Shown: in pieces, positions 8,177 through 57,658 of the stretch
How positions within the stretch are numbered: the stretch's first letter is position 1
Layout of the letters: each line of letters opens with the position of its first letter
From: Alphaproteobacteria bacterium
GTDB lineage: Bacteria > Pseudomonadota > Alphaproteobacteria > UBA7985
Direction of reading: 5' to 3'
DNA length: 64,000 bases
Assembly: GCA_964228455.1 (NCBI GenBank)
Contig: CAXQZM010000070.1
Coordinates: 180-64,179 of the forward strand
Translations under genes and position numbers: made by a program
Notes under the pieces: generated by a model
What the model was told of the DNA's origin: nothing
Seen by the model: the letters and a program-made list of their open reading frames with translations, nothing else
Database searches by the model: none

Positions 8177-8185
8177 ACTTTGAGG

Positions 8186-12060: not shown

Positions 12061-12199
12061 GGACGATCTATAGGGTTATGAATATCGTGGGTGAAGTCAT
12101 TTCATTAACTATTTCTGAGTAACTTTTGACTCCATGCATCTACCTCTTTTAACCTTGGCCTGAGGCCTAATTTAAATGCGTTCCAGTATAAAAAAAGAT

Positions 12200-13399
12200 T
12201 TAACTTGATGAATAAATATCGATCAAATGCAGATATGAGCCTGCAACCGTTCCTACCTTCAAACCCTGCAAACCTTGGCTAGAGCCGTACGCATCATTAA
12301 CTTCGAAAAGTGCCTCAGCTTCACCTTGCCATTCGATCCGCGTATAATGAAATTCGTGTCCGCGCCAAATCTCACCTTCAGAGCCCAGAGAAAAATTGGT
12401 AAGCGCTCGAATCTCGCGATAACCCAGATGTCGCTTCTTTTTAGCAAAGGTAGTAACTAAAGGCAGCAATCCGGCCATCTGATGGCGTACCCCTTGCGCA
12501 TCAATAATTGCTTCACCTAGCACCATAAATCCCCCACACTCACCATAGATTGGAACGCCGGCCTCAGCGGCCTGACGCAAGTTGGGCAAAAAATGTTGAT
12601 CCGATTTTATCTTGTCCAAGTATAGCTCTGGATAGCCGCCTGGGAGAAAAATACTTTGTTCGGGGACTTGCATGTGAGGGTATGAAAAACATAACCCCAA
12701 ATCAGGATGCCCAATCGATGAGAAAGTCATTGGAGTTTCTGGTTTAAGCACACTTTCGTTTGCGAGATGAGAAGTTTCAACAAGAGGATTCGCCCATTCA
12801 GAGGCTTTAAGAAGAAAACGATTAAGGTCGGAATTTTCATCTGCCATATGCAGGCCCAAGTGCCGGCTTGGAAGCACCAGACTATCTTCTGGTGGCAAGA
12901 ACCAACTTGGAATATCAGAATGCAAGGCTTCACGGATTAATGCTTCGTGTCTTTTGCTCGCAACCCGGTTAAAAATTACTCCGCTTATGGCAAGATCGGG
13001 GTCTCGGAGCACTAGACCCTCTGCAACTGCCGCCGCCGTTTGTGCGGATTTGCTCGCGTCAACCACTAAAATTATAGGCCAACCAGAAATACGTGACAGA
13101 GCGGCTGTTGAACCAGGTCCATCATGCAGTCCCATGACACCCTCTACAATTGCCACCTCATCAGGCTTAACACCGCCGATAAGACGAGATATCGTCTCCC
13201 TGCGCATAGCCCAGGGATCGAGGTTTGCGCATGGTGCGCCTGCGGCAGCGCTCAAATAAGTTGGATCAATATAATCTGGACCGGTTTTAAAAGGACGTAC
13301 TTTTTGACCCGCGGAGGTTAAAGCAGAAATCAAACCCAAAGTAATAGTAGTTTTCCCAGCACCTGAATTAGGGGCAGCTATTATTAAACCTCGAGCCAA
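12200..13399 (-). CDS. cobB: Cobyrinate (hydrogenobyrinate) a,c-diamide synthase
   Basis: N-terminal ATPase P-loop APNSGAGKTTITLGL and a C-terminal glutamine amidotransferase domain with YGECGGFMVLG. 399 aa, which is somewhat short. The last ~20 codons lie in AT-rich sequence. Confidence 0.8.
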   Translation of the reverse strand: MARGLIIAAPNSGAGKTTITLGLISALTSAGQKVRPFKTGPDYIDPTYLSAAAGAPCANLDPWAMRRETISRLIGGVKPDEVAIVEGVMGLHDGPGSTAALSRISGWPIILVVDASKSAQTAAAVAEGLVLRDPDLAISGVIFNRVASKRHEALIREALHSDIPSWFLPPEDSLVLPSRHLGLHMADENSDLNRFLLKASEWANPLVETSHLANESVLKPETPMTFSSIGHPDLGLCFSYPHMQVPEQSIFLPGGYPELYLDKIKSDQHFLPNLRQAAEAGVPIYGECGGFMVLGEAIIDAQGVRHQMAGLLPLVTTFAKKKRHLGYREIRALTNFSLGSEGEIWRGHEFHYTRIEWQGEAEALFEVNDAYGSSQGLQGLKVGTVAGSYLHLIDIYSSS

Positions 13400-14175
13400 T
13401 TCAATTGCTCCCTCAGACCTACGTTAGCCCCGACCACAATCAAAGCAGGAGATCCAAACTTATGCGCTGAGACATCTTCTACGGTTCTCCCCACCGTAGT
13501 ATCAAGAATTCGCATGTTGGGCAATGTAGCATTCTGTACGACAGCTACTGGCTCATCAATTGGCCGACCTCCAGCAATTAGTGATTGCATTATCCGGTCC
13601 AAATGTTTGATCGCCATAAATATTACAAGTGCAGGGCTTGATTTAGCTAATCCAGTCCAATCAACATTGTCAGGAACATCCCCTGTTACGGAATGCCCAG
13701 TAATAAAAGTTACTGCTGAGTTCGTACTTCGGTGAGTTAGGGGAATACCAGCATATGCCAATCCTCCGATACCACTTGATACTCCTGGGACAAAACGAAA
13801 TGGCACTCCAGCGTCTAGCAGTGCCAATGCCTCTTCCCCACCACGGCCAAATACCAATGGGTCACCACCCTTTAACCTGACCACACGTTTGCCTTGCTTG
13901 GCAAGCGCAACCAAACGGGAGCTAATATCTACCTGCTTAGGACTAGAAACGCCACCGCGCTTTCCTGCAAATACTAATTCTGCATCGCCATTTGCCCAAT
14001 CTAAAATGTCCTGACCAATTAAAGCATCATGCACAACAACATCTGCTTGCTGAATTGCAGATAGTCCAAGAAGCGTGAATAAGCCTGGATCTCCAGGGCC
14101 TGCGCCCACCAGCCAAACATGGCCTGGCTTCAGCTCACCAAGACTAGCAACATTTGGCAAAGAATTTGACATCAC
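13384..14175 (-). CDS. cobA: Uroporphyrinogen-III C-methyltransferase (SUMT)
   Basis: VWLVGAGPGDPGLFTL and VVRLKGGDPLVFGRGGEE are tetrapyrrole methylase motifs. Overlaps cobB by 16 nt. Confidence 0.85.
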   Translation of the reverse strand: MMSNSLPNVASLGELKPGHVWLVGAGPGDPGLFTLLGLSAIQQADVVVHDALIGQDILDWANGDAELVFAGKRGGVSSPKQVDISSRLVALAKQGKRVVRLKGGDPLVFGRGGEEALALLDAGVPFRFVPGVSSGIGGLAYAGIPLTHRSTNSAVTFITGHSVTGDVPDNVDWTGLAKSSPALVIFMAIKHLDRIMQSLIAGGRPIDEPVAVVQNATLPNMRILDTTVGRTVEDVSAHKFGSPALIVVGANVGLREQLNWLEV

Positions 14176-14250
14176 TGCCCCCTATCCTGGCCTTAAGAGG
14201 ACATCTATAGGAAACCGACCTATGACCTCGACAATTGAGACATAAAGATC

Positions 14251-15342
14251 ATGGCAAGTGCATTTTCAGCTAAAAGCGAGCCACATCCAGGCGTTAAAAA
14301 TACCGGTAAAAGCGGCCGTTTAAAAAGGGGCTGGACCACAGGTGCCTGCGCTACGGCTGCAACCAAGGCTGCTCTTATTGCATTGTTGGATGGGGACTTT
14401 CCTGACCCTATTAGCATCACATTACCCGGTGGCCAAACCCCTGCATTTACAATTTCCAGACATAAACAGGGCATAGATTGGGCTCAAGCAAGTGTCATAA
14501 AAGATGCTGGCGATGACCCTGATGTCACCCACGGGGCGGAAGTGCAGGTTTTGATTAAGCGGTCAGAAAAACCAGGGTTGCGCTTCCACGCGGGGTCAGG
14601 CGTTGGCACTGTCACTAAAGAAGGGTTACCGATCGAGGTAGGACAGGCATCTATCTCCCCGACACCACGCACAATGATGACCACTGTGGTCTCAGAGAGG
14701 TTGAACCTAGAGCACGAGGGGCTCGACATCACCATATCAATTCCGGGGGGAGAAAAACTAGCAGAGAAGACATGGAATGGACGGCTGGGTATTTTGGGTG
14801 GACTCTCGATTTTGGGCACGACTGGTGTGGTTGTACCCTATTCCTGCGCCGCTTGGATCCACTCTATTCATCGCGGTATTGATGTAGCACGAGCGAACAA
14901 AATTCAGCACGTGGCAGCGGCAACAGGAAATCAGTCAGAAGCTGGCATACAAGCGATGTATGATCTACCGAGTCACGCACTAATTGATATGGGCGACTTT
15001 GCCGGTGCAATGCTAAAATATCTAAAAAAGTACCCCATACCAAAGCTATCAATTGCAGGTGGTCCAGGGAAGCTAGCGAAACTAGCCCAGGGCCACGGTG
15101 ATTTGCATTCATCAAGATCTCAAGTTGATGTGATGTTTTTAAGTCAGATTAGCGGCCAAGACATTGGTAATGCTCAAACTGCAGCCCAAGCTCTGAAAAA
15201 CGTCTCAGCTCCAAATGACTTTGCAAATTCAATTGCAAAACATGCACAGCGGGAGGCGCAGAAACGACTTGGCTCTGGTATTTTGATTGACGTACAGCTT
15301 TTCGACCGAGTGGGTAAGCATTTGGGAGGGGCAAATGCTTAA
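14251..15342 (+). CDS. cbiD: Cobalt-precorrin-5B C1-methyltransferase CbiD
   Basis: CbiD signature LKRGWTTGACATAATKAA near the N-terminus. 363 aa. Confidence 0.8.
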   Translation: MASAFSAKSEPHPGVKNTGKSGRLKRGWTTGACATAATKAALIALLDGDFPDPISITLPGGQTPAFTISRHKQGIDWAQASVIKDAGDDPDVTHGAEVQVLIKRSEKPGLRFHAGSGVGTVTKEGLPIEVGQASISPTPRTMMTTVVSERLNLEHEGLDITISIPGGEKLAEKTWNGRLGILGGLSILGTTGVVVPYSCAAWIHSIHRGIDVARANKIQHVAAATGNQSEAGIQAMYDLPSHALIDMGDFAGAMLKYLKKYPIPKLSIAGGPGKLAKLAQGHGDLHSSRSQVDVMFLSQISGQDIGNAQTAAQALKNVSAPNDFANSIAKHAQREAQKRLGSGILIDVQLFDRVGKHLGGANA

Positions 15343-16099
15343 AATATTAGTTCTTGGTGGAACAATAGAAGCCAGGGAATTAAGTTTAGCACTCGTAGAA
15401 ACGGGCCATGAGGTCACAATCTCATTTGCCGGCCTAACGCGAAACCCATTGACAGCGGACGGGGTCTTTTTAATTAGCGGCGGGTTTGGCGGACCTCAAG
15501 GCCTAGCGAATTACTTAAGCAACACACAGACCGACATATTAATTGATAGTACGCATCCATTTGCTAACCGAATGTCACGAAATGCTTTCATTGCAGGTAG
15601 ATTATCTAACACGGAAGTACTTGCACTCAGGCGACCAAGCTGGAATCGCAGGCCTGGTGATAGGTGGAAAAACCTTGATACTCTCGAAAAAGCCGTGAAG
15701 CGATTAAGACACGCGAAGCCTAAGCGCGTTCTATTAGCTCTAGGTGGGCAAGGCGCAGAGCAATTTAGAAAATGCCGCCAACATCAGTTTCAGGCTCGAG
15801 TGCTGATCAACTCCGCGACTAATTTGGCTACCTCTTCTGCGCATCGCTGGAAAGGATTGGAGATTATTCGAGTGGATTCGCGCCGAACAGTAACAGAAGA
15901 AATCAACGAAATCTGCAACTATAGGCCAGATTTAATGATTGTTCGAAATGCTGGAGGGCCACTAAATGCAAAACTTGACGCTGCCAGAAGACTGTCGCTG
16001 CCGGTTTGGTTAATTGACAGGCCCCCAATGCCGCCCGTACCTTTATTTTCGTCGCCTACAGCGCTGCTCAAGCATTTACAAAATGAGAAGCTCGCGTGA
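15335..16099 (+). CDS. cobK: Precorrin-6A/cobalt-precorrin-6A reductase
   Basis: MLKILVLGGTIEAREL N-terminus typical of CobK/CbiJ. Start at the ATG 15335 overlaps the cbiD stop and is preceded by a GGGAGG Shine-Dalgarno. The ORF in the track begins at 15287. Confidence 0.8.
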   Translation: MLKILVLGGTIEARELSLALVETGHEVTISFAGLTRNPLTADGVFLISGGFGGPQGLANYLSNTQTDILIDSTHPFANRMSRNAFIAGRLSNTEVLALRRPSWNRRPGDRWKNLDTLEKAVKRLRHAKPKRVLLALGGQGAEQFRKCRQHQFQARVLINSATNLATSSAHRWKGLEIIRVDSRRTVTEEINEICNYRPDLMIVRNAGGPLNAKLDAARRLSLPVWLIDRPPMPPVPLFSSPTALLKHLQNEKLA

Positions 16100-35157: not shown

Positions 35158-35874
35158 TTATTGTCTATTTAATGCTACATTTGACTGATTTTTGCGAATT
35201 ACGAACAGCCATGCATCTAAATTGGAGTTCAGCTTTTCTTGAACGGAGTGTTCAAGAGATATCTGAGAACCGAACCACATGGTTAAAACATATGGCATGG
35301 AGGTAGGGCGAACACCAAACGGATCCATTTTTGAAGCGTATGCTGGACCATGCGATTTAGTATGCTCGATTATTAAGATTCCGTTTTCTTTTAGCTGAGC
35401 CAACCAAGTCTCCAAAGCCAATTGTGGCTTCCATGCTTGATCCAGAGAATTAGTATAGATGAAATCTTTGGAGCCCAACCAGGCGTCATTTACATCGTGA
35501 AAATCCCACTGAAACGAATTTTCATAGTTATTGGCAGTATCTGATATATCAGTTCCAATAACATCAAATTTCTTGGACGCTTCCCGCAAATAATTCTGCT
35601 CAAATCCATTGCGCGAACCATGGCAAATTCCACTAATGGTCTCAATGTCTTTAAATTCCCTAAGAACGAGCTCTGCGACTCTATCTAGAGTTTTCTTATC
35701 AGCAAAAACTCGGTCAATCTTGCGCTTGTTGTGAAATACTTGAGCAGTTTTATATTCGTCATATGAGGAGTACTCGTGCAAGTAAAAATCCGTCATATCC
35801 TTTTCTTTTACTACTACATATCCGAATGGCTTAAATAAGGACCTGAAAAATCGTTTAACTAGATTTTCTGCCAT
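35158..35874 (-). CDS. Putative SAM-dependent methyltransferase (orphan, in AT-rich patch)
   Basis: GICHGSRNG...DVIGTDIS resembles methyltransferase motifs I/II. The ORF lies in a locally AT-rich segment. Confidence 0.45.
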   Translation of the reverse strand: MAENLVKRFFRSLFKPFGYVVVKEKDMTDFYLHEYSSYDEYKTAQVFHNKRKIDRVFADKKTLDRVAELVLREFKDIETISGICHGSRNGFEQNYLREASKKFDVIGTDISDTANNYENSFQWDFHDVNDAWLGSKDFIYTNSLDQAWKPQLALETWLAQLKENGILIIEHTKSHGPAYASKMDPFGVRPTSMPYVLTMWFGSQISLEHSVQEKLNSNLDAWLFVIRKNQSNVALNRQ

Positions 35875-39358: not shown

Positions 39359-39484
39359 CGCAAGTCAATGCCCGAAAATACAAGGTACGGTCTCGTATAA
39401 TCGCCAATAAAATAGGCACTACCCATCCACTTCCGTATAAAAAATTTGAAACAGATTTAATTGCTAGATGCGGAAAATTACGGA

Positions 39485-39578
39485 AAGCTGGCGAACGACC
39501 CGCGCTCCATCCCCTATGGCTGCTCCGTTCCCGGCCTGACCAGGTTCAGGGCAAAGCTCGTCCGCCGCCAACTTTCCT
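39485..39578 (-). ncRNA. ffs: Signal recognition particle RNA (4.5S-type)
   Basis: The minus strand reads CCUGGUCAGGCCGGGAACGGAGCAGCC. This matches the E. coli 4.5S domain IV sequence CCAGGUCAGGUCCGGAAGGAAGCAGCC, including the GGAA tetraloop and the AGCAG asymmetric-loop residues. G-rich 5' and 3' arms (GGCGGCGGACGAGC / GCGCGGGUCGUUCGCC) can pair. A sigma-70-like promoter sits just upstream. The ends are approximate. Confidence 0.65.
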
Positions 39579-39583
39579 CGCTC

Positions 39584-39613
39584 CATTCTATTGGTTTTAG
39601 TTAGAATCTCAAG
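39584..39613 (-). promoter_or_regulatory. Sigma-70-type promoter for ffs
   Basis: Minus strand TTGAGA-N16-TAGAAT placed about 7 nt before the predicted SRP RNA 5' end. It overlaps the upstream alternative GTG start of dnaX. Confidence 0.4.
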
Positions 39614-39651
39614 GGGTGTCTTTCCCAAATCAATCGACTAAGTATTTCTTC

Positions 39652-41340
39652 ATGGAATTGAGCTTAACTGGTGGATCAGACCAAAACACAAGCTATCGAG
39701 TTTTAGCGCGAAAATACCGACCGCGTGATTTCTCAACATTATATGGACAGGAGCCATTGGTAAAGACGCTAACCAATGCAATATCGTCTGGACGGCTTGC
39801 CCATGCCTTCATGTTGACAGGCGTAAGGGGCGTAGGGAAAACAACAACAGCAAGAATATTAGCAAGAGCGCTTAATTGCTCTGCGCCAGATGTAACAAAA
39901 CCAACGCCGGTGCCTTGCGGCAAGTGTGAAAACTGCTTGGCAATCCTAAAAGACCATCACCCCGACGTTCTTGAAATGGATGCAGCAAGCCATACTGGTG
40001 TTGATGACATTCGAGAACTTCAAAAATCTGTAGCTTACCGACCTAGTTTGGGCAGATTTAAAATATTTATCATTGATGAAGTTCACATGCTGTCCACTAA
40101 TGCGTTCAACGCCTTATTGAAAACATTAGAAGAGCCACCTGAGCAAGTGATCTTTATCTTTGCTACCACGGAGATTAAAAAAGTTCCGGTAACAGTTTTA
40201 TCTCGCTGCCAGCGCTTTGACTTGCGACGCATCGATATTGACGTTCTAACAAAACTATTCAGTCACGTAATTGGTGAGGAGAATCTTGAGGCCGAAGCTG
40301 AAGCGCTATCGATAATCGCACGCGCTGCAGATGGCTCCGCGCGCGATGGCCTATCAATCTTGGACCAAGCCATATCTCTGTCAGGGTCGCCCTTAACCGC
40401 GAAGGCTGTACAGGAGATGCTAGGACTGGCAGATCGGGCTCAAATTCTTGACCTATGTGAGCTTATCATGAGTGGTGACGTTCCCAAAACCTTGTTGTTA
40501 TTTGATAAGCTCTACCAGTCAGGCGCCTCACCTTTAAGCATTTTGACTGATCTTGCTGACTTTGTACATTGGATGACCAGGCTAAAGGTTGGCTCAGGTG
40601 CCGATGATCCAGGTTTAAGTGAAACGGCACGAAACAAAGGTCAGGAAATGGCTGACGCGTTGTCAATTGCCAACCTCGCTAGAAGTTGGCAGATCCTAAG
40701 TAAATCAATAATCGACGTTAAAGCTGCAGACCATCCAAAAGAGGCAGCAGATATGGCGCTTATACGATTGGTATACGCCGGCACCCTCCCTACTCCTGAC
40801 CAAATTTCAAAAAAGCTCTTGGGGGCGCCCCTTAAACGCCAGCATGCCAGCGATAAAGCATCACAAAAATCACCAAGTGATCCGGATATAAAGAAACCTC
40901 CTTTTGATCCTCTTCCAGGCAGCTCTGGCGCTGATCCAAACGTCCGCGCAATTCATGAGCTTAATCCGGACAAACAAAGACGAATTGAGAGTCTAGAGGA
41001 TATAATTGAAGCTTTGCTAATAGAACGCGAGCCTCTTTTAGCAGCTGATCTTCGAGCTTACGCCAGAGTCATTTCCATAATAGATGGTAACCTGATTCTT
41101 TCCAGAAACAGCAGAATCACTCGAGAACATCTCAACAAACTCTCGGCTCATTTACTGAAGTGGACAGGTTTTACTTGGCTTGTAACTCTAGCGGATGGTG
41201 ATGGGGGCCCGACATTGGCGGAAGCCCAGCATGCAGCAACCAAATCAAAAAAAGATGCAGCCGAAAATCACCCACTAGTCCAAGCAGCTCTGGAAGCCTT
41301 TCCAGATGCAAAAATGAGTGAAGTAGTCGTTATAGATTGA
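39652..41340 (+). CDS. dnaX: DNA polymerase III subunits gamma/tau
   Basis: YRVLARKYRPRDF...GVRGVGKTTTARILA Walker A, zinc module CGKCENC, box FIIDEVHMLS. Start set at the ATG 39652. A GTG at 39616 is the alternative. Confidence 0.85.
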   Translation: MELSLTGGSDQNTSYRVLARKYRPRDFSTLYGQEPLVKTLTNAISSGRLAHAFMLTGVRGVGKTTTARILARALNCSAPDVTKPTPVPCGKCENCLAILKDHHPDVLEMDAASHTGVDDIRELQKSVAYRPSLGRFKIFIIDEVHMLSTNAFNALLKTLEEPPEQVIFIFATTEIKKVPVTVLSRCQRFDLRRIDIDVLTKLFSHVIGEENLEAEAEALSIIARAADGSARDGLSILDQAISLSGSPLTAKAVQEMLGLADRAQILDLCELIMSGDVPKTLLLFDKLYQSGASPLSILTDLADFVHWMTRLKVGSGADDPGLSETARNKGQEMADALSIANLARSWQILSKSIIDVKAADHPKEAADMALIRLVYAGTLPTPDQISKKLLGAPLKRQHASDKASQKSPSDPDIKKPPFDPLPGSSGADPNVRAIHELNPDKQRRIESLEDIIEALLIEREPLLAADLRAYARVISIIDGNLILSRNSRITREHLNKLSAHLLKWTGFTWLVTLADGDGGPTLAEAQHAATKSKKDAAENHPLVQAALEAFPDAKMSEVVVID

Positions 41341-47011: not shown

Positions 47012-48304
47012 ATGGTGCTTACTCCCTCCTTAGGTCTTAAGCAGCGTCAACGTCTTGGTTTGACACAAGAAATAAAGTCGTCTCTTCAATACCTGGCACT
47101 GGCGGGGCTTCGATTAGAACAAGCCCTTACAGATGTTTTAGATTCTAACCCATTTCTGTCAGTTCGAAGCACGCACCCAATTCATAGCGAAGCTGATTGG
47201 TTGACAAATTTAGCTTCACCTGGACCTGAGTCTATCGCAACGGCTCTTCGCCTGTTGGCTACCGACTTATTTTGGACGCCAGAAGACAAATTTCTAAGCG
47301 ATATGCTCATTGATGAGGTCGGCGATAATGGCTTACTAGAGTTGCCCCTTGCTGACATTGCTGAAGATAATCGTATTGAGCTAGACCGGCTCAGACCGAT
47401 TCAGGACAAGTTTCTGGCTGAAGGCGGTTTGCTTGCTGACAATTTAGGCCATAGCCTAAGCGCACAAGCCGTTGCAAAGGTTCAAGTTGGTGACTGGCCA
47501 AACGAAGTTTTGGCTGAGGTACTAGAGGCATGTGACCTTTTAGACTTGATAGCATGCGGTGAGTTCACGCCAAATGCAAAAATTCTCGACCTAGTGCGAA
47601 CCCTTAACCCCCGGCCGGCCGATAATTTAGACTTAGAAGCTGCCGTAATTATACCGCCAGATCTCATTGTTGAAGAGTATGAAAATAACTGGCGCATAAG
47701 CCTAAATCCGCTGACGAATAGAGCCTACGAATTAGATGTTGATGCGCTAGGTGGTTTGAGTCCCAATGAGCAAAAGCAACCAAATATCGCTGAACCAATA
47801 AAAACTGCAAAAAGTACCGTAAGAGCACTGAAGGCACGTAAGCAAACTTTGGTTAATCTTGGTTATTTTCTGTGTAAAAAACAAGATGCTGCGCTTCGCC
47901 ACGGAAGAGCGCAACTGTCACCACTTACTCAAATGGACGCTGCAGAAGCGTTAGATTGTCATTCCTCCACTATATCGCGGGCTGTCGCAGGAAAAACGAT
48001 TCAAACCCCACAAGGGGTTTGGCCTTTAAGAGATTTTTTTTCTGCACTAATTGATCCCAACTCACTCTTATCAGGAGCCCAGCTGCGAGCGTGGCTTACA
48101 GAGACCATCTTTGAAGAAAATCGAACTGCTCCAATGTCGGATGCTGAGTTAGCAATTAAATTATCTGAACTTGGGCATGAGGTTGCTCGACGTACAATCA
48201 CAAAATACCGTCTTCATATAGGCTTGCCGGGTGCAGCGGCTCGGCGACGCCTATACTCTAGACGGTCACCAAATTTTAAAACATATAAGAAAGGGAAACT
48301 ATGA
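47012..48304 (+). CDS. rpoN: RNA polymerase sigma-54 factor
   Basis: N-terminal Gln/Leu-rich activator-interacting region (LKQRQRLGLTQEIKSSLQYLAL) and the C-terminal RpoN box ARRTITKYR. Followed by hpf. 430 aa, which is short for sigma-54. Confidence 0.85.
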   Translation: MVLTPSLGLKQRQRLGLTQEIKSSLQYLALAGLRLEQALTDVLDSNPFLSVRSTHPIHSEADWLTNLASPGPESIATALRLLATDLFWTPEDKFLSDMLIDEVGDNGLLELPLADIAEDNRIELDRLRPIQDKFLAEGGLLADNLGHSLSAQAVAKVQVGDWPNEVLAEVLEACDLLDLIACGEFTPNAKILDLVRTLNPRPADNLDLEAAVIIPPDLIVEEYENNWRISLNPLTNRAYELDVDALGGLSPNEQKQPNIAEPIKTAKSTVRALKARKQTLVNLGYFLCKKQDAALRHGRAQLSPLTQMDAAEALDCHSSTISRAVAGKTIQTPQGVWPLRDFFSALIDPNSLLSGAQLRAWLTETIFEENRTAPMSDAELAIKLSELGHEVARRTITKYRLHIGLPGAAARRRLYSRRSPNFKTYKKGKL

Positions 48305-48867
48305 AACTCACAATTGAAGGCCACCAAGTCCAAATGTCTCCCGTTCTCAATGAGAGAGTTGAAGCCTCTTTAGATGGTATTTTTGAAAAATATTTTGGGG
48401 ACGCTGTCTCAGCACAAGTCTTGTTCAGGCGCTCAGGGCATGGCTTCTCAGCACACCTGGAGACACATGTTGGAAAGCACATACATCTTGCCTCAGAGGG
48501 AAAAGCTGGTGATGCTTATAGCGCATTTGATTTAGCGGCTACTCGATTAGCGAAGCGACTCAGGCGGCACAAACGTAAATTACGAGATCATCATGCTGAT
48601 TTGGATGGTAGAAAAGTCCTCGAGGCTCGCGGTTTCGTTCTGGAGGCTGCGCCAGAAGAAGAACCAGAGGAAACCACGCCAGATGCGCCAACAGTTATTG
48701 CAGAAACCCCAACCCTAATTCCCACACTAAGTGTAGCGGAAGCTGTGATGCATCTTGATTTAAGTGATCAGCCAGCGCTCATGTTTCATAATGTTAACCA
48801 TGGTGGTTTGAATATGGTTTATGAAAGAACAGATGGCCACATATCCTGGGTAGATCCTCAAGAATAA
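48301..48867 (+). CDS. hpf: Ribosome hibernation promoting factor (long form)
   Basis: MKLTIEGHQVQMSPVLNERVEASL...FKRLRRHKRK matches the YfiA/HPF fold. Sits directly after rpoN. Confidence 0.85.
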   Translation: MKLTIEGHQVQMSPVLNERVEASLDGIFEKYFGDAVSAQVLFRRSGHGFSAHLETHVGKHIHLASEGKAGDAYSAFDLAATRLAKRLRRHKRKLRDHHADLDGRKVLEARGFVLEAAPEEEPEETTPDAPTVIAETPTLIPTLSVAEAVMHLDLSDQPALMFHNVNHGGLNMVYERTDGHISWVDPQE

Positions 48868-48950: not shown

Positions 48951-49724
48951 ATGCAGTTTAGTTTTCGAGCTTCAATGGCCTTAACTTTGATTTGCTGTGG
49001 AAATCTTGCAGTTGCACAGTCACAAGCACTCACGCCAGGTGCGGCGGCCATCGGCGGTACAACAACCAGTACTCAGTTAATTGGACCAGGAGGATCCTTG
49101 GTTCCGATTAGAGCCGCTCCCAATGCAGAGGACACTTCTCAGACCTCTACTCAAATAACCACAGGTGAAAGTAGCCTTCGCAGCTCCGATCAAAGTGAAC
49201 CAGTAGTGCTCCCAGCTGATCGGACTCAAGAAGCTACTGCTACTGAAACATCTGAACAAACGAGTGCACCAGAGAAAATTGAAGAGCCAAAAACTGTAGA
49301 AACAAGCATCCCTCAACCTCCTGAGAACGCCGAGACATCGCAAATTACGGCAGGCGCCACGCCAACGACCGCACCAGCAGCTGAAGATGATGAGGCAGGC
49401 GCGCTAAACCCTATTAATACTTTCGAACCAGCCCGCCTTGATTTTGGTAACGAGGGTATTGCATTAACAGCTCAACACGAAATTGCTCTTGACCCAATTG
49501 CAGCTCTTATGAGAGCAAATCCACTTATGCCGCTCCAAATCATTGCGGTGCTGCCACTCTCCGAAGCAACAAGCGACGAGGCAAAACAGAAAGCACGGAG
49601 AAGAATACTTGCTGTTCGAAGCAATCTAATTTCACGTGGGCTTAGCGCAGATAATCTGACATTTGTAATATCCGCCAATACAGAGTCGGAGCCTTTTGCT
49701 AACTTTATCCTTATTGAACGCTAA
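48951..49724 (+). CDS. Secreted protein with Ser/Thr/Glu/Pro-rich linker and degenerate OmpA-like C-terminal domain
   Basis: Signal peptide MQFSFRASMALTLICCGNLAVA-QS, then about 110 aa of low-complexity T/S/E/P-rich sequence. The C-terminal 100 aa (ARLDFGNEGIALT...ILAVRSNLISRGLSADNLTF) follows the OmpA C-domain spacing but lacks the GHTD core motif. Start set at the ATG 48951, preceded by GAGGGGAG. The stop overlaps the next gene (TAATG). Confidence 0.55.
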   Translation: MQFSFRASMALTLICCGNLAVAQSQALTPGAAAIGGTTTSTQLIGPGGSLVPIRAAPNAEDTSQTSTQITTGESSLRSSDQSEPVVLPADRTQEATATETSEQTSAPEKIEEPKTVETSIPQPPENAETSQITAGATPTTAPAAEDDEAGALNPINTFEPARLDFGNEGIALTAQHEIALDPIAALMRANPLMPLQIIAVLPLSEATSDEAKQKARRRILAVRSNLISRGLSADNLTFVISANTESEPFANFILIER

Positions 49725-50836
49725 TGATCATACTTGCCCGCCCACTCATTTTAATATTCATCGCACTAGCTGCGCTTTTAACGATTTTAAGTCTTCAGTT
49801 CGGTCCAATTAGCGCATTTTTCGCAGAAAATTTGGTGATAAATAGCCTGATTTTAGGCGTTTTCATAATTGGGCTATTTTTATCATTCTGGCGGCTTTCA
49901 GCTCTTGCATTCGAAATTACTTGGATCGATCGGATTAGAAATGCCACACAAGCCAGCGATGCAGATGAATTAGCTGGCCCTAGGGTAGTTGCGCGCCTGC
50001 ATATGCTTGCGGCATTTGCAAATGTCTGGCGCCGATTTTTTGATTCCAGTCAAGCTCTAACCCCCGATCTCGCAACAACTTTAGTTGACTCGGCCCAAAA
50101 TCGACTTGATGAGCGAAGAGAGCTCTCTCGCTACCTTGCTAATGCCTTGCTAATTCTAGGTTTGCTAGGAACTTTCTGGGGTCTTCTTGGTGCATTAATT
50201 GGAATGCGTGAGGCACTTGGAAATCTCGATGCTCAACAAGATTTCTTTACGGGTCTATCTAGCTCGCTGTCAGCGCCTTTAGAAAGCATGGGCACTGCGT
50301 TTTCATCTACCTTATTTGGTCTGGCTGCTTCGCTTTTGTTTGGGTTCATTGAACTTCAGACCACTCGCGCGCATTCTGCATTTTTGGAAAATTTTGAAGC
50401 CTGGCTTGCTACTTTTATGCAGACAACAGAACTTGCTTCAGATGACAACAAACATCCGATGTCAGCAAAACCGCGTCCATCGATAGAGCCAAATGCAAAT
50501 ATAGAGACGCTTGGTCACCTAATGCGGCGGGGTCAGCAAGATACTATGGTCTTGAACAATAACCTCGTGAGTCTTTTAGATCAGATAACTCGCGTTGCTG
50601 ATAAAGTAGAAGCAAACCACCTAGTTCACGAAAAGATACTCTCATCTCAGATGACTAATGAGCAGCTTATTGATAAAATTGAGGTTTTAGTGGATACTTT
50701 GACAATAGAAAAACAAACAGATTCTTTATCGGGCATTGATAATAGGATTGTAGCAACTGCAGAAAGCATAGAGCCAAACGATTACAAAGATCCCGCAGAT
50801 GATGCTGCCGCGGACTCGAGTAAAGACGAAAGTTAG
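49724..50836 (+). CDS. MotA/TolQ/ExbB-family proton-channel protein with C-terminal hydrophilic tail
   Basis: Four TM segments. TM3 contains LGLLGTFWGLLGALIGM, the MotA_ExbB signature. A C-terminal stretch of about 140 aa is polar and coiled-coil-like. Confidence 0.7.
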   Translation: MIILARPLILIFIALAALLTILSLQFGPISAFFAENLVINSLILGVFIIGLFLSFWRLSALAFEITWIDRIRNATQASDADELAGPRVVARLHMLAAFANVWRRFFDSSQALTPDLATTLVDSAQNRLDERRELSRYLANALLILGLLGTFWGLLGALIGMREALGNLDAQQDFFTGLSSSLSAPLESMGTAFSSTLFGLAASLLFGFIELQTTRAHSAFLENFEAWLATFMQTTELASDDNKHPMSAKPRPSIEPNANIETLGHLMRRGQQDTMVLNNNLVSLLDQITRVADKVEANHLVHEKILSSQMTNEQLIDKIEVLVDTLTIEKQTDSLSGIDNRIVATAESIEPNDYKDPADDAAADSSKDES

Positions 50837-50842
50837 GCTACC

Positions 50843-52033
50843 GTGGCGCGGAGACGCAGCATCAATGGGGAGCTTAATGTTTGGCCTGCTTTTGTGGATG
50901 TCCTCGCGACACTACTTCTCGTCATTATTCTATTGGTGCTAGCAGTTACGCTTACTCAATTTTATACAGCAAATCGGGCTTCCGGATTAGAGCGTATAGG
51001 AGATCAACTCAGCGATCAGCTAGAGCAGCGAGTAAGACAATTAACCGCATTACAACAGGAACGTGAGAGCCTAATTCGAGAAGGGGATGACCTTAGAAGT
51101 AATGTGGGTGAGTTAACTTATCAGGTGAACACACAGTCAAATGAAATAGACGAACTCCAGATTCTACGCGATCAATTATTTGCCCAAATTGCTCTTCAAG
51201 CTGATGAACTTAACGTTCTGAAGAGTGAGCAAATAGAGTTGACCAATAATAGCGAAGCAGCTGAGAAAGCGGTGGAAGATCTTCTGCTTAAACTTGCTGA
51301 AATAGAAGGCGGGGATGTTGATCTTGAAGGCGGCTTGCTAACTGTATTAGGACAAATGGACGATAAACTAGAACGACTGCTTAACGTTCTTTCGAATGCA
51401 GAGAGGGAACGCAAAAATGCGGAAAATCAGCGCGCAGCCGCAGAAAATGAACTTGCAGAACTTGATGCCAATAACTTTATCCTTCTTGCCGAAAATGAGG
51501 GCTTAAGAGCTAATTTAGAAACGCTAAGCTTAAGCGAGAGGCTTAACGACTCATTGCTTATAGAAGCGGAGGAACTTGGTCGCCAGCGCTCCGCTTTCTT
51601 CGCTAATTTGATTGAAGTATTAGGGGAGCGTGATGATGTCTCAGTTGTTGGTGATCGATTTGTCTTCCAATCCGAGGTTTTGTTTGATTCTGGCTCTGCC
51701 AGGCTAGGAATTAGTGGTGAAGCACAACTTACACGCCTTGCTGAAACGATAATGTCTTTAGCCTCAGACTTCCCATCTGACTGGATTTTAAGAGTTGATG
51801 GCCATACCGATGCAAGACCCATTTCGCCTAGTTCTAGAAGCCGTTATCAGAATAACTGGCAGCTTAGTTCAGAGCGGGCTCGTTCTGTTGTAGAGTCACT
51901 AATTGCACAAGGGGTGCCACCAAACCGGCTTGTTGCAGCTGGCTTTGGAGAGCACCAACCCCTAATCGATGAAGACACCCCAGAAGCTTTAGCTAAAAAT
52001 CGTCGTATTGAGCTCAAACTAACAACGCGATGA
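50843..52033 (+). CDS. MotB-like protein with long coiled-coil linker and C-terminal OmpA peptidoglycan-binding domain
   Basis: N-terminal TM with MotB/TolR-type Asp (WPAFVDVLATLLLVIILL). About 230 aa of heptad-like Leu/Glu/Gln-rich sequence. OmpA domain with FQSEVLFDSGSARL...RVDGHTDARP...NWQLSSERARSV...NRRIEL. Confidence 0.7.
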   Translation: MARRRSINGELNVWPAFVDVLATLLLVIILLVLAVTLTQFYTANRASGLERIGDQLSDQLEQRVRQLTALQQERESLIREGDDLRSNVGELTYQVNTQSNEIDELQILRDQLFAQIALQADELNVLKSEQIELTNNSEAAEKAVEDLLLKLAEIEGGDVDLEGGLLTVLGQMDDKLERLLNVLSNAERERKNAENQRAAAENELAELDANNFILLAENEGLRANLETLSLSERLNDSLLIEAEELGRQRSAFFANLIEVLGERDDVSVVGDRFVFQSEVLFDSGSARLGISGEAQLTRLAETIMSLASDFPSDWILRVDGHTDARPISPSSRSRYQNNWQLSSERARSVVESLIAQGVPPNRLVAAGFGEHQPLIDEDTPEALAKNRRIELKLTTR

Positions 52034-52067: not shown

Positions 52068-52658
52068 CTAAGCTTCCTTTCGCCCGCGCAAAGCGCTGGC
52101 CAAAGTGCCTTCATCCAAATACTCAACTGCTCCGCCTACTGGCAAACCCTGCGCCAACTTAGTAATTTTCAAGCCGCTTGCCTTCAGTAAATCCTGAATA
52201 AAATGCGCGGTCGACTGTCCTTCTACAGTCGCTGATAATGCTAGAATCACTTCTTTGAGGTCTCCGCGGCTAACGCGTTGTTTTAGGGATTCAGTACTCA
52301 GCAAGTCCGGTGTCACCCCATCTAACGCAGAAAGCCGACCCCCTAGAACATGGTAAAGTCCCTTATAGGTTTGCGCTCTCTCCAAAGCCCAAACGTCCGC
52401 AACCTGCTCAACAACACACACAATGCCTACGTCGCGCCCGATATCTCGGCACACACGGCAAACTGATGCAGAATCTAGGTTACCGCACTCAATACAGGGT
52501 TGAACATCGTTCGCAACTCGAGCCAGTGTGCTGGCCAAAGGCATCATTAAGTCGGTTTTCCGCTGGAGCAAGTTAAGCGCCATCCTCCTTGCCGACCGAG
52601 GGCCAACCCCTGGCAACCTAGATAATAGGTTTATAAGTTCATCTATCTGAGAGATCAA
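52068..52658 (-). CDS. recR: Recombination protein RecR
   Basis: Helix-hairpin-helix LPGVGPRSARRMA, C4 zinc finger CIECGNL...CRVC, and a Toprim domain. 196 aa. Confidence 0.9.
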   Translation of the reverse strand: MISQIDELINLLSRLPGVGPRSARRMALNLLQRKTDLMMPLASTLARVANDVQPCIECGNLDSASVCRVCRDIGRDVGIVCVVEQVADVWALERAQTYKGLYHVLGGRLSALDGVTPDLLSTESLKQRVSRGDLKEVILALSATVEGQSTAHFIQDLLKASGLKITKLAQGLPVGGAVEYLDEGTLASALRGRKEA

Positions 52659-52661
52659 AAT

Positions 52662-52994
52662 CTAGAATCCTAGCCCACCGGGTAGTTTGAGACCGCCTGT
52701 GATTGACTGCATTGAGTCGGCAGCTACTTGTTCAGCTTTTTTCTGCGCATCATTCACAGCCGCTACGATTAGATCTTGAAGCATATCAGGATCCTCTGGA
52801 TCAATAAGAGATGAATCAATTTTAAGAGCCTTAAGTGCGCCTTTGCCGGTGGAAGTTGCCTCCACTAAACCGCCACCTGAGTTTCCTGTTACCTCGAGCT
52901 CATCTAATTTCTCTTGAGCTTCCTGCATTTTAGCCTGCATTTGCTGCGCTTGCTTCATCATTGCCTGCATATTTTTCATTGAAGGGTTCTCCAT
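52662..52994 (-). CDS. ybaB: Nucleoid-associated protein YbaB/EbfC
   Basis: MQAMMKQAQQMQAKMQEAQEKL N-terminus typical of the YbaB family. 110 aa. Immediately upstream of recR. Confidence 0.9.
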   Translation of the reverse strand: MENPSMKNMQAMMKQAQQMQAKMQEAQEKLDELEVTGNSGGGLVEATSTGKGALKALKIDSSLIDPEDPDMLQDLIVAAVNDAQKKAEQVAADSMQSITGGLKLPGGLGF

Positions 52995-56881: not shown

Positions 56882-57658
56882 ATGCTTGAGCAATTTGTTG
56901 ACCTAAGTCGCCATAATATCAAAAACGATAATTACGCGGCTACCTGTCGATCTCGATTAGATTCTAAAGGCGTTCTTTGTTTGCCAAAATTTTTGAAGCC
57001 GGAAGTACTGCACGCATTAGTTGATGCGGCAGCAGAGGTGGAAAAACATGCATATTTTACCACATCAACGCACAATGTTTATTTAACGCCAAAGAATCCG
57101 GAGTTACCAAAAAGTCATGTGTTTAATCTGCAGGTAGTCTCAACTAAAGGTTGTGTTTGTGATGATATAATTTCAGCTAACTCACCATTACGTCATATTT
57201 ATAACAACGCTGACTTTAAAAAATTTATATGCCAAGTTGTCGGAGTAGATTCTCTTTTCCCTTACGAGGATCCGCTCTCATCCATCAACATTCACTATGC
57301 ACCCAAGGGAAAGGAACTAGGATGGCATTTTGATAACTCAGAGTTCGCAATCACACTTCTTCTACAGGCGCCAGAAGCGGGCGGAGAGTATCATTATATT
57401 AAAGATTTAAGAGATGCTAATGCTGGCGAAATGAACTTTGAGGGGGTTAAAGCAGCATTAGAGGGAAGGCTTGAACCCACAGTTCTCCCAATAGAGCCTG
57501 GAACTCTCGTGCTCTTTCGAGGTCGAAACTCATTGCACAGGGTTACACCAACAAAAGGAAAGATTTCCCGCTATTTGGTTGTACTAGCATACAATGGAAA
57601 GCCCGGGGTGAGCCTCTCAGAAACTGCTCGTCAAACATTCTATGGGCGCGTTGTTTGA
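56882..57658 (+). CDS. Putative Fe(II)/2-oxoglutarate-dependent dioxygenase-like protein
   Basis: Candidate HxD...H facial triad (GWHFDNSE ... SLHRVTP) with a downstream Arg/Ser (KISRY). 258 aa. The gene body is locally AT-rich. Assignment is tentative. Confidence 0.45.
   Translation: MLEQFVDLSRHNIKNDNYAATCRSRLDSKGVLCLPKFLKPEVLHALVDAAAEVEKHAYFTTSTHNVYLTPKNPELPKSHVFNLQVVSTKGCVCDDIISANSPLRHIYNNADFKKFICQVVGVDSLFPYEDPLSSINIHYAPKGKELGWHFDNSEFAITLLLQAPEAGGEYHYIKDLRDANAGEMNFEGVKAALEGRLEPTVLPIEPGTLVLFRGRNSLHRVTPTKGKISRYLVVLAYNGKPGVSLSETARQTFYGRVV

Follow-up and report, generated by a model that had tools for sequence, protein, structure and literature searches.

In the alphaproteobacterium Komagataeibacter hansenii (Acetobacteraceae), which has no flagellum, a gene named motA (348 aa, four transmembrane (TM) segments) adjoins one named motB (321 aa, one TM segment and an OmpA-like domain) (PMC6570709). 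When motA/motB is overexpressed, the cells elongate and form chains and the colonies spread faster (three-fold on 0.3% agar), and the authors likened the phenotype to that of tolQ/tolR overexpression (PMC6570709). The GFP fusions were polar, and the MotB-GFP fusion was C-terminal (PMC6570709). The latter is hence periplasmic, an unreliable type of reporter. Disruption mutants are viable and produce denser cellulose (review PMC7347698). Jacek et al. 2019 treated the pair as motility genes and proposed neither a mechanism nor a partner (PMC6570709).

A comparable pair, P2 and P3, is preceded by a third gene, P1, in the stretch of 64,000 nt analyzed here (the window). Judging from the published description and from matching database names, the K. 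hansenii pair probably belongs to the same family: the genes are adjacent and alphaproteobacterial, the A subunit has four TM segments and the B subunit has one plus a C-terminal OmpA-like domain. The K. hansenii proteins are shorter than their counterparts of 370 and 396 aa in the window and, unlike in the window, no P1-like gene is mentioned in their description.

Gene set and junctions

P1, P2 and P3 are tightly coupled plus-strand genes downstream of rpoN-hpf (Table 1), with open reading frames (ORFs) of 266, 370 and 396 aa, the last from a GTG start. P1 is read from 48951, the second ATG of its ORF, 10 nt downstream of GAGGGGAG; this ATG lies 83 nt after the end of hpf, and no terminator-like or sigma-54 promoter-like site was seen in the interval. 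The co-directional coupling claimed in a sequence-only reading of this DNA was found at both junctions: P1 and P2 share 1 nt in TAATG, and P2 and P3 are separated by a 6-nt gap. All window ORFs of at least 150 aa, together with ORFs in the remaining gaps, were checked with Pfam or by eye and are housekeeping genes; Pfam confirmed the identities of rpoN, hpf, recR and ybaB. The checked ORFs include no fli, flg, che, tol, pal, tonB or exbD gene, as had been claimed for flagellar, Tol-Pal and TonB context. The asserted lack of zorC/zorD/zorE-like genes was borne out as well: neither the window nor the conserved neighbors of the family at other loci contain zorC/D/E/F/G, a nuclease or a helicase gene. 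A paralog of P2 or P3 was sought in the window and none was found.

Table 1. Positions of the three genes, their parts and the upstream neighbors in the window
Feature	Coordinates	Strand	Evidence
rpoN (sigma-54), co-directional upstream neighbor	47012..48304	+	Pfam Sigma54_AID/CBD/DBD
hpf (long ribosome hibernation factor)	48301..48867	+	Pfam Ribosomal_S30AE and its C-terminal domain
P1, secreted periplasmic accessory protein (predicted)	48951..49724 (alternative start 48924)	+	ORF; P1-family C-terminal HMM E=1e-8, 33.9 bits
P1 putative signal peptide MQFSFRASMALTLICCGNLAVA, AXA-type site before QS	48951..49016	+	read from sequence
P1 low-complexity Thr/Ala/Glu/Pro/Ser linker	49017..49433	+	composition
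P1 degenerate OmpA-like domain	49443..49682	+	Pfam OmpA 17.3 bits (cut-off 27.2); comparison with P1 homologs and P3 domain
P2, A-subunit-like, MotA/ExbB/TolQ/ZorA superfamily, 4 TM	49724..50836	+	ORF; Pfam MotA_ExbB 31.5 bits (cut-off 22.9)
P2 channel core: TM3, short periplasmic loop, TM4	50138..50359	+	invariant columns in 82 and in 20 sequences
P2 cytoplasmic tail	50360..50833	+	AF2 secondary structure and pLDDT
P3, B-subunit-like: N-terminal TM helix, periplasmic coiled coil, OmpA-like domain	50843..52033	+	NCBIfam PRK09039.1-2 267 bits; Pfam OmpA 61.8 bits
P3 TM helix with invariant W14, P15, V18, D19	50882..50962	+	invariant columns in 61 sequences; hydrophobic segment 10-44
P3 periplasmic helical region	50963..51622	+	AF2; heptad scan; alignment
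P3 MotB-type OmpA-like peptidoglycan-binding domain (predicted)	51638..52027	+	invariant columns; PDB profile and Foldseek matches

Architecture of the three proteins

P1 had been described as a protein with a signal peptide, a Ser/Thr/Glu/Pro-rich linker and a degenerate OmpA-like C-domain, and this description agrees with our results. Its N-terminus resembles a signal peptide, and homologs begin equivalently. Residues ~41-170 contain 17% T, 14% A, 12% E, 11% P and 10% S; the linkers of homologs are Pro/Ala-rich and highly variable in length, in proteins of 236 to 578 aa. The C-terminal domain has other residues in place of GHTD and NRRxE but keeps an LSxxRA-like Arg; the label 'degenerate' is fair because the Pfam OmpA score lies below the cut-off.

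P2 has four hydrophobic segments, and the MotA/TolQ/ExbB-type channel ascribed to it is supported; the added tail is ~158 aa long (residues 213-370), not ~140 aa as estimated before. Residues 145-161 form the motif LGLLGTFWGLLGALIGM. The channel core, to which the matches of Pfam, PADLOC ZorA and NCBIfam ZorA_4 are all confined, carries G146-L-x-G-T150-F-x-G-L, followed by P185, M189 and T191-A-F-S194; in the 82-sequence alignment the invariant residues are G146, L147, G149, T150, F151, G153, L154, P185, M189, T191, A192, F193 and S194. By predicted fold, P2 comes nearest to TolQ, ZorA and ExbB, with MotA ranking below all three, and among these matches ZorA has the highest sequence identity (15-20%). 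Sequence profiles of P2 against the PDB did not reach TolQ, ExbB, MotA or ZorA, and many family members score under the Pfam cut-off. Since P2 is too divergent for PDB profiles, its place in the superfamily depends on a single Pfam hit together with the predicted fold and the conserved motifs. In the AF2 model the TM4 helix continues into the tail, where a disordered stretch leads to a single long helix (257-330) and the end is acidic and again disordered; the tail has a net charge of -14 and its profile matches are weak, coiled-coil and apolipoprotein-like only.

For P3 the TM Asp in AFVDVL, a coiled coil of ~230 aa and a complete OmpA domain had been reported, and each of them was recovered. 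AFVDVL spans residues 16-21, with the Asp at D19 (codon 50897-50899). The GTG start is supported because W14 and P15 are invariant in homologs; in 379-aa database versions of P3 the start is called at V18. The AF2 model (pLDDT 85.4) shows helices at 14-155 and 162-260 with ~220 periplasmic helical residues: the periplasmic helix runs from 41 to 155, breaks at EGGDVDLEGG and resumes at 162. The proximal part of this region varies in length across the family and the distal ~90 residues are conserved; from locus to locus, P3 lengths run from 341 to 661 aa and more. In the OmpA-like domain GHTD, NWxLSxxRA and NRRIE are all intact. PDB profiles matched this domain to MotS (1e-26), MotB (1e-24) and PomB, and Foldseek to MotS, MotB, PomB and PA0833; ZorB (8vvn_A) was aligned to P3 by Foldseek over 217 columns, and the PADLOC ZorB1 model aligned to residues 3-101.

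In P2 and P3, as in the flagellar stators MotA-MotB, PomA-PomB and MotP-MotS, the A subunit has four TM segments and the B subunit combines a TM Asp with a MotB-type OmpA-like domain; unlike in these stators, P2 has an added cytoplasmic tail, P3 has a coiled coil of ~220 residues in place of the short plug and linker, and the context is not flagellar. TolQ and ExbB have three hydrophobic segments against four in P2, and TolR and ExbD have a periplasmic domain where P3 ends in an OmpA-like wall anchor. The GLxGTxxG motif in the channel helix of P2 and the PxxDV motif in the TM helix of P3 appear to resemble the ExbB/TolQ and ExbD/TolR signatures of E. coli. With ZorA-ZorB (PDB 8qyd, 8vvn) the pair shares an A subunit, presumably of the 5:2 type, that runs into a cytoplasmic helical tail, and a B subunit that pairs a TM Asp with an OmpA-like peptidoglycan-binding domain. 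However, the ZorA tail is several hundred residues long compared to ~160 aa with one long helix in P2, the long coiled coil belongs to the periplasmic part of the B subunit, and the module lacks effector genes and is chromosomal, syntenic and vertically inherited rather than mobile.

The proteins gave no full-length match to any characterized family, and their NCBIfam MotA, MotB and ZorA scores are far under the respective cut-offs; the earlier view of a MotA/MotB-like module that is still functionally uncharacterized is upheld. The best-scoring models for P3 are the NCBIfam PRK09039 'peptidoglycan-binding protein' models (NF006542-NF006546), which align to the C-terminus with 201-267 bits. 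P3 stays under every curated PRK09039 cut-off (305 for the best model), consistent with a divergent lineage only ~40% identical to the main family. The models say nothing about function; NCBI applies their name, 'peptidoglycan-binding protein', to P3 orthologs in Sinorhizobium, Thalassospira and Roseibium.

Spread and synteny of the family

At E<=1e-30, a P2 profile search yielded 1,022 clusters (50% identity). Of 80 genomes fetched, 77 have P2 and P3 side by side, mostly genomes of Alphaproteobacteria and including Sinorhizobium meliloti and the Acetobacteraceae genomes L027, L042 and L070; the commonest gap between the two genes is 3 nt. The usual neighbors are efp, suhB, a thiE-like gene, an ABC transporter gene and hsp20, and flagellar, Tol or Ton genes are not among the recurrent neighbors at the 80 loci. 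More specifically, tolA, tolB, pal, tonB and TonB-dependent receptor genes were absent from the window ORFs and from the neighbors at the loci. In S. meliloti the pair is flanked by an inositol monophosphatase gene on one side and an ABC gene on the other. According to the P1-family C-terminal HMM, a P1 ortholog is located immediately 5' of P2 in at least 43 of 69 loci and is missing in Hyphomicrobiales, Kordiimonas and one SAR116 genome; P1 is therefore not essential to the core mechanism.

The order rpoN-hpf-P1-P2-P3 recurs in L081, L082 and L083. The placement after hpf, in the slot that ptsN/yhbJ take in enterobacteria, thus applies to the window and its nearest relatives; as a general rule it fails, as the set follows efp-suhB outside this lineage. 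The family is retained in planktonic marine lineages, for example SAR116 and Thalassospira, occurs in none of 50,697 phage records and is carried by no genuine plasmid. The trio is an ordinary copy of a compact, widespread, vertically inherited, mainly alphaproteobacterial family with housekeeping synteny; this spread and synteny contradict the idea of an unusual module. It is a housekeeping set under generic pipeline names, and not a functionally characterized operon; the only phenotypes described are those of the probable Komagataeibacter orthologs (PMC6570709, PMC7347698).

Proposed function and alternatives

We regard it as reasonably probable that P2 and P3 form a non-flagellar, non-defense inner-membrane complex of the 5:2 MotAB/TolQR/ExbBD/ZorAB type, for which a role in morphogenesis is the likeliest. 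In such a complex, a ring of P2 subunits would enclose two P3 TM helices, each with the conserved Asp19, and conserved hydroxyl residues of P2 TM3/TM4 (T150, T191, S/T196) would line the ion path. P3 would be held to the peptidoglycan by its MotB-type OmpA-like domain, which caps the long, species-variable periplasmic coiled coil. Because P3 would be anchored in this way, ion flow would rotate the P2 ring, along with the five helical tails that it extends into the cytoplasm, against a partner in the cytoplasm or the membrane. P1, whose linker is long and disordered and whose OmpA-like domain lacks part of the peptidoglycan-binding motif, may act as a periplasmic accessory and probably touches the periplasmic domain of P3 or the wall. 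The weakest step is the role itself: morphogenesis of the envelope or the cell, by which we mean elongation, separation or processes at the pole, is suggested by the phenotypes of the probable orthologs in flagellum-less Komagataeibacter.

The possible defense function raised in the sequence-only reading is very unlikely. A Zorya-like anti-phage system, or a minimal ZorAB sensor with effectors encoded elsewhere, would fit the best PADLOC matches (ZorA1, 1.5e-9; ZorB3, 1.5e-24), the top NCBIfam match of P2 (ZorA_4), the leading identity of ZorA among the fold matches and the cytoplasmic helical tail common to P2 and ZorA. However, the ZorA matches are limited to the ~100-aa channel core and reach 26 bits against a cut-off of 500, and the AF2 model of the tail has one ~74-residue helix and no long coiled coil. 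With the missing Zorya effectors, the vertical inheritance in stable housekeeping synteny across orders and the absence from phages and genuine plasmids, we consider this reading extremely improbable. NCBIfam scores also disfavor an accessory or alternative flagellar stator, with 11.6 bits for MotA (cut-off 340) and 57-85 bits for the MotB, MotS and MotD models (cut-offs 250-301). Such a stator would account for the MotA- and MotB-like topologies, for MotS, MotB and PomB as nearest relatives of the P3 domain and for the database names 'flagellar motor protein MotA' and 'chemotaxis protein MotB'. The P2 fold nevertheless places MotA behind TolQ, ZorA and ExbB, flagellar genes are absent from the window, from the recurrent neighbors and from the annotated neighbors of the S. 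meliloti pair, and probable orthologs occur in a genus without flagella (PMC6570709), which leaves a stator highly improbable. Slightly less so, though still quite doubtful, is a flagellum-independent surface-movement motor like AglRQS of Myxococcus that drives colony spreading. The tripled spreading of K. hansenii (PMC6570709) speaks for it, but altered cell length, chaining or cellulose production can also cause spreading on soft agar, none of the 80 loci has Glt-like or adhesin genes close to the pair, and planktonic marine lineages have kept the family.

The long coiled coil and wall anchor of P3 would also suit a passive tether between inner membrane and peptidoglycan, with the channel-like core as an oligomerization scaffold without ion flow. 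Alphaproteobacteria are not known to have Braun's lipoprotein, which we count in favor of a tether. Yet the ion-conduction residues of related motors, the Asp of the B subunit and Thr/Ser and Pro of the A subunit, are invariant family-wide; at the level of sequence this argues for a working channel, and we give the tether little credence. A force transducer of the Tol-Pal or TonB kind is unlikely, but less so than the tether: here the P3 coiled coil would be a TolA/TonB-like arm that pulls on or remodels a wall or outer-membrane target (P1 or another), with a periplasmic output. The structural proximity of P2 to TolQ and ExbB, the ~220 periplasmic helical residues of P3, the co-transcription of a periplasmic partner gene in most lineages and the likeness of the chained, elongated cells to tolQ/tolR overexpression (PMC6570709) all point in this direction. 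However, the arm is capped by a canonical MotB-type anchor with intact binding motifs and has no TolA/TonB-type C-terminal domain, its length varies at least two-fold (P3 of 341 to 661 aa and more), a surprising spread for a calibrated reach, several orders lack P1, and the conserved P2 tail of ~160 aa would be left unexplained. In the 5:2 complex that we prefer, this tail would belong to the rotating part. The main family carries a C-terminal tail motif, GR...RSEIxLLARTIAA, which is lost in P2 of the window's lineage, so that the output may differ in this lineage.

Architecture of the P1-P2-P3 module

The module consists of P1, a secreted protein with a disordered linker and a degenerate OmpA-like domain, P2, which resembles the A subunits of the MotA/ExbB/TolQ superfamily, and P3, a MotB-like B subunit. 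An examination of the ORFs, the TAATG junction, the 6-nt gap and all other window ORFs bore out the three-gene description of the sequence-only reading, including the missing flagellar, Tol and TonB genes. Only lengths needed small corrections: the P2 tail has 158 aa instead of ~140 and the P1 linker ~130 instead of ~110.

Genes of the module and its immediate flanks in the window
Gene	Position	Strand	Remark
rpoN	47012-48304	+	upstream, co-directional with P1-P2-P3
hpf, long form	48301-48867	+	upstream, co-directional
P1	48924/48951-49724	+	ORF, two candidate starts
P2	49724-50836	+	ORF; TAATG junction with P1, 1-nt overlap
P3	50843-52033	+	ORF; 6-nt gap after P2
recR + ybaB	52068-52994	-	downstream of P3, convergent

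Every ORF in the window was checked, and flagellar, chemotaxis, Tol-Pal, TonB and ExbD genes were absent, as was a second P2- or P3-like gene. All remaining ORFs, small gap ORFs included, are of the housekeeping kind: kdsD-lptA-lptB, cobalamin genes, pgk, grpE/hrcA, fabAB, sdhCDA, dnaX, coaBC, lepA, ffh and hslVU are among them. The rpoN neighbourhood suggested a sigma-54 promoter upstream of P1; no match was found near 48.87-48.95 kb, and the window-wide match count was that of chance. No terminator was found between hpf and P1, and co-transcription of rpoN-hpf with the module is possible. Scans for sigma-70 promoters and terminators stayed at or below shuffle expectation and give no information on operon structure.

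P1 starts with a signal-peptide-like N-terminus bearing an AXA-type site, followed by a stretch of ~130 aa in which Thr, Ala, Glu, Pro and Ser abound. Against Pfam OmpA the C-terminal domain of P1 reaches 17.3 bits, under the 27.2 cut-off. We built an HMM on the last 130 residues of 41 proteins whose genes directly precede P2; it matched the P1 of the window with E=1e-8. P1 homologues share the signal peptide, a Pro/Ala-rich linker and an OmpA-like domain in which AYAG replaces GHTD and DRVDL replaces NRRxE; a secreted linker and OmpA-like protein of this kind lies immediately upstream of P2 in the window.

P2 contains four hydrophobic segments. Pfam MotA_ExbB (PF01618) matches residues 123-209, the TM3-TM4 core, with 31.5 bits (gathering threshold 22.9). 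Two P2 relatives, P0011 (21.3 bits) and P0089 (17.3 bits), miss this threshold; by sequence, P2 only just qualifies for PF01618, and several relatives fail. The predicted structure (pLDDT 81.7) has the A-subunit fold of the MotA/ExbB/TolQ superfamily and is closest to TolQ, ZorA and ExbB, ahead of MotA, an order that Foldseek also returns. Profile searches of the PDB with the whole P2 family and with the TM3-TM4 core gave coiled-coil noise only, plus ZorA at E=8. Invariant residues are G146, L147, G149, T150, F151, G153, L154, P185, M189, T191, A192, F193 and S194. The acidic 158-aa tail contains a single 74-residue helix in the AF2 prediction; the tail motif conserved in the main family, GR...RSEIxLLARTIAA, has been lost in the lineage of the window and an acidic disordered end stands in its place. 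The tail (window 50360-50833) and P0089 also show weak PDB matches to apolipoprotein A-I/A-IV/E helical repeats and to an Mce/MlaD-domain protein, which may reflect mere amphipathic-helix composition or hint at membrane-surface binding.

P3 has a single TM helix with the motif AFVDVL, in which D19 provides the acidic residue typical of 5:2-motor B subunits. All 61 sequences compared carry D19, and likewise W14, P15 and V18. The invariant residues of P3 and P2 are ones that matter for ion conduction in related motors. The TM helix has a TolR/ExbD-like look, which is an impression and not a result: a PDB profile search with the N-terminal TM segment was uninformative (coiled-coil noise). AF2 predicts helices at 14-155 and 162-260. 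P3 length varies across species from 341 to 661 aa and beyond whereas P2 stays near 384 aa, and only the ~90 residues of the coiled coil that precede the OmpA-like domain are conserved; no tandem repeat was found beneath the coiled coil. The C-terminal domain (61.8 bits on Pfam OmpA) is a MotB-type peptidoglycan-binding domain with invariant GHTD, NWxLSxxRA and NRRIE motifs, profile matches to MotS (1e-26) and MotB (1e-24), and Foldseek matches to MotS, MotB, PomB and PA0833.

The best NCBIfam model for P3 is PRK09039 'peptidoglycan-binding protein' (NF006543), which aligns through the C-terminus with 267.3 bits, under the equivalog cut-off of 305. P3 clearly belongs to the wider family, with 7,990 homologues and identities of 38-43% across about 100% of the length; the PRK09039 models are functionally uninformative. 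An identical P3 protein is called publicly as 396 aa and as 379 aa. We rejected a length polymorphism, as only the start-codon calls differ; the 379-aa call starts at V18 and drops the invariant W14-P15 and a cytoplasmic Arg cluster (window 50843-50896).

Distribution and synteny of the family

Both P2 and P3 have thousands of homologues. Those of P2 are very uniform in length (~380 aa) and mostly lack Pfam annotation; those of P3 carry names such as 'peptidoglycan-binding protein', 'chemotaxis protein MotB' or 'OmpA/MotB domain protein'. A P2 profile of 82 sequences, searched against 1.84 billion cluster representatives, matched no more than 4,033 proteins at E<=1e-3, with 1,022 at E<=1e-30. 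The P2 family is thus compact and well separated, and its profile does not extend by sequence to the very large TolQ, ExbB and MotA families.

In 80 loci sampled from species-representative genomes, P3 follows P2 directly on the same strand in 77, most commonly after a gap of 3 nt; the other three are contig ends. The module is one of a family and not a one-off. The loci belong mostly to Rhodospirillales (broad sense), Acetobacteraceae, Hyphomicrobiales, Kiloniellales, Kordiimonas and SAR116, with three Xanthomonadales-like MAGs (Dokdonella, Chiayiivirga). Recurrent neighbours are genes for inositol monophosphatase (51 loci) and EF-P, a thiamine-phosphate-synthase-like gene, an ABC transporter gene and hsp20. 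Flagellar, chemotaxis, Tol and Ton genes are missing from the 25 neighbour clusters that recur most often in the 80 loci. The S. meliloti pair is flanked by an inositol monophosphatase gene and an ABC gene, in a locus that has no flagellar gene.

Of the 69 loci whose DNA extends far enough, at least 43 encode a P1-type protein directly 5′ of P2; it is absent from this position in Devosia, Mesorhizobium, Sinorhizobium, Kordiimonas and one SAR116 genome. Taken with the adjacency of P2 and P3 in 77/80 loci, this means that the P1-P2-P3 set is ancestral to a large part of Alphaproteobacteria, with P2-P3 as its invariant core. In 11 loci, that of S. meliloti among them, a Sel1-repeat protein of ~385 aa that carries a signal peptide is encoded upstream of suhB, and its gene lies ~3 kb upstream of P2 in L010, L084 and other loci; it is possibly a further periplasmic component in lineages without P1.

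The source of the window is an uncultured alphaproteobacterium. Only about 13-16 database clusters are >50% identical to the proteins of the window, all others ~30-40%. Relatives of 52-54% identity keep the order rpoN-hpf-P1-P2-P3 with otherwise different neighbours, so the slot behind hpf, pointed out in the sequence-only reading, is stable in the lineage of the window but not general in the family. Neither efp nor suhB was found in the window, which indicates that the usual P2-P3 neighbourhood has been lost in this lineage. The module of the window belongs, as an ordinary case, to a large family that is vertically inherited and mainly alphaproteobacterial.

P2-P3 also occurs in the Chiayiivirga and Dokdonella MAGs (loci L050, L066 and L071) and in MAGs labelled Patescibacteria, Gamma- or Betaproteobacteria (L004, L013, L039 and L068); transfer out of Alphaproteobacteria or mis-binning could account for these cases. 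A Firmicute-labelled contig (L032, WNWL01000002.1, 'Oceanobacillus sp. HTM 045') carries at 7959-15352 a P2 homologue, a 960-aa P3-like ORF and three more OmpA-like ORFs, and is either contamination or an unusual expanded variant.

Relation to known motors and proposed mechanism

Motors of the ion-driven 5:2 kind are at work in flagella, in Ton-dependent import, in the upkeep of the envelope by Tol-Pal, in gliding and in Zorya defence. Homology suggests that P2 and P3 form a ring-and-axle, ion-conducting complex of this type, for which we infer A5B2 stoichiometry and ion-driven rotation. With P3 anchored to the wall by its OmpA-like domain, the flow of ions would rotate the ring of P2 subunits, together with their cytoplasmic tails, against a partner; P1 would assist in the periplasm, on or close to the P3 domain or the wall. 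We consider this wall-anchored motor with P1 as accessory the probable overall reading, held with some reserve, and its cellular role would probably lie in envelope or cell morphogenesis.

The closest experimental data come from flagellum-less Komagataeibacter hansenii, which has just two 'motility-like' genes, 'motA' (348 aa, 4 TM) and 'motB' (321 aa, 1 TM and an OmpA-like domain), side by side (PMC6570709). Their best hits are alphaproteobacterial proteins named exactly like P2 and P3 family members (Table 1 of PMC6570709); architecture, taxonomy and these names make it likely that the two genes belong to the P2/P3 family. Overexpression gave elongated, chained cells, ~3x faster colony spreading on soft agar and looser cellulose, and left the morphology of E. 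coli cells carrying the constructs unaffected (PMC6570709). Disruption mutants are viable and make denser cellulose (PMC7347698). GFP fusions of both proteins were polar, and bipolar in long cells (PMC6570709); the C-terminal MotB fusion places GFP in the periplasm and is therefore a weak reporter. The authors proposed no mechanism (PMC6570709). A survey of stator evolution lists many non-flagellar homologues of unknown function and does not single out the P2-P3 family (PMC12505986). Our searches, which did not cover slash-joined names such as 'MotA/TolQ/ExbB', found no literature specific to the family beyond the Komagataeibacter papers. The S. meliloti Rgs polar-growth proteins, which pull down TolQR, were considered and rejected: none has the architecture of the module, and the supplements omit proteins of the P1, P2 or P3 type.

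The main rival to the wall-anchored motor places the output in the periplasm, with P3 as a Tol/Ton-like arm; we regard it as unlikely. Membership in Tol-Pal or Ton themselves was rejected on topology, the periplasmic domain of the B subunit and missing partner genes. Tol-Pal combines a three-TM TolQ with the tolQ-tolR-tolA-tolB-pal set and ExbBD-TonB uses an exbD-type B subunit, whereas P2 has four segments and P3 ends in an OmpA-like domain; tolA, tolB, pal, tonB and TonB-dependent receptor genes are absent near P2-P3 in the window and among the recurrent neighbours of the 80 loci. Four further readings, namely surface motility, a flagellar stator, defence and a passive tether, each appear very improbable. 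A flagellar role is contradicted by the neighbourhoods, which are free of flagellar genes in the window and among the recurrent neighbours of the 80 loci, by the S. meliloti pair between inositol monophosphatase and ABC genes, and by the equivalog models: flagellar MotA (NF005997) scores 11.6 bits on P2 against a cut-off of 340, and the MotB/MotS/MotD models reach 57-85 bits on P3 against cut-offs of 250-301, over the OmpA-like domain only.

ZorA supplies the best curated models for P2. A Zorya system needs effector genes as well as a ZorA with a long tail, and its distribution is patchy. PADLOC ZorA1 matches P2 with 1.5e-9; the PADLOC ZorA models cover only ~100 residues, in the channel core, out of profiles of 487-1063 positions, and NCBIfam ZorA_4 (NF033917) reaches 26 bits against a cut-off of 500, short of a full-length match. 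P3 scores 84.7 bits with PADLOC ZorB3 (residues 228-392) and ZorB1 (PDLC00611) aligns with residues 3-101; matches of this sort are given by any MotB-type protein. ZorA has a long C-terminal coiled-coil tail, the P2 tail one 74-residue helix. The effector genes zorC/zorD, zorE and zorF/zorG are found neither beside the module (rpoN, hpf, recR, ybaB) nor among the conserved neighbours of the 80 loci. A mobile or patchy defence-island distribution was not seen, with synteny conserved across orders. A typical family member had no match in 50,697 phage records, and in 72,556 plasmid records it matched only five Sinorhizobium and Shinella replicons of 3.5-4.6 Mb, which we judge to be probably mislabelled chromosomes. 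The possible defence role raised by the sequence-only reading is opposed by these searches, the missing effectors and vertical syntenic inheritance. The record L084 (CP090106.1, 'Sinorhizobium meliloti Ak57 plasmid pSymB', 3.72 Mb) carries purE, rpmE, the inositol monophosphatase gene and P2-P3, and on these genes looks like a chromosome mislabelled as pSymB.

P1-P2-P3 is a distinct variant of the 5:2 motor theme and not a defence system; it is mechanistically uncharacterised and the phenotypic data are indirect. Its combination of a TolQ/ZorA-like tailed ring, a MotB-type anchor on a long, variable coiled coil and a secreted degenerate-OmpA partner seems to be undescribed. Each newly understood branch of 5:2 motors has revealed a new coupling of membrane potential to work, and this one has been kept in many Alphaproteobacteria, free-living as well as symbiotic, among them the genetically tractable Sinorhizobium meliloti and Komagataeibacter. 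Its proteins are routinely mis-named 'flagellar motor protein MotA' and 'chemotaxis protein MotB', which misleads the reading of genomes of non-motile taxa. Understanding the module could explain part of alphaproteobacterial envelope biology as well as the changes of cell shape and cellulose architecture in manipulated industrial Komagataeibacter strains. As a speculation with a small chance of being right, it might be a housekeeping cousin of Zorya: a 5:2 wall-anchored motor that informs the cytoplasm of mechanical conditions in the envelope, in which the long P3 coiled coil and P1 would sense spacing or strain between inner membrane and peptidoglycan and five rotating P2 tails would relay the signal, adjusting how cells elongate, separate or mature their poles across Alphaproteobacteria. 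An ancestral 'envelope mechanosensor' logic would in that case be common to anti-phage ZorAB and P1-P2-P3.

Surroundings of the module in the window

In many proteobacteria, rpoN-hpf-ptsN comes after kdsD-lptC-lptA-lptB. The window carries kdsD (SIS+CBS), a 191-aa unannotated ORF at the lptC position, lptA and lptB at 2145-5216, followed by 5-formyl-THF cyclo-ligase and ymdB instead of rpoN-hpf-ptsN; rpoN-hpf adjoins P1-P2-P3 ~42 kb away. No Pfam match at E<=0.01 was obtained for the ORFs at 49-528, 3102-3677 and 35158-35874 (159-237 aa), the second of which is, by position, probably lptC.

The pair ybaB-recR is usually found downstream of dnaX in one operon. In the window, the SRP RNA and dnaX lie at 39483-41340 on the + strand and ybaB-recR ~11 kb off on the - strand, directly after P3; this position suggests an inversion or insertion with a breakpoint abutting the module. 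The same arrangement of recR-ybaB after P3 is present in locus L082 and not in L081. A HalD-like protein (halogenase D, 2OG-Fe(II) oxygenase family) is encoded at 56882-57658 amid housekeeping genes.
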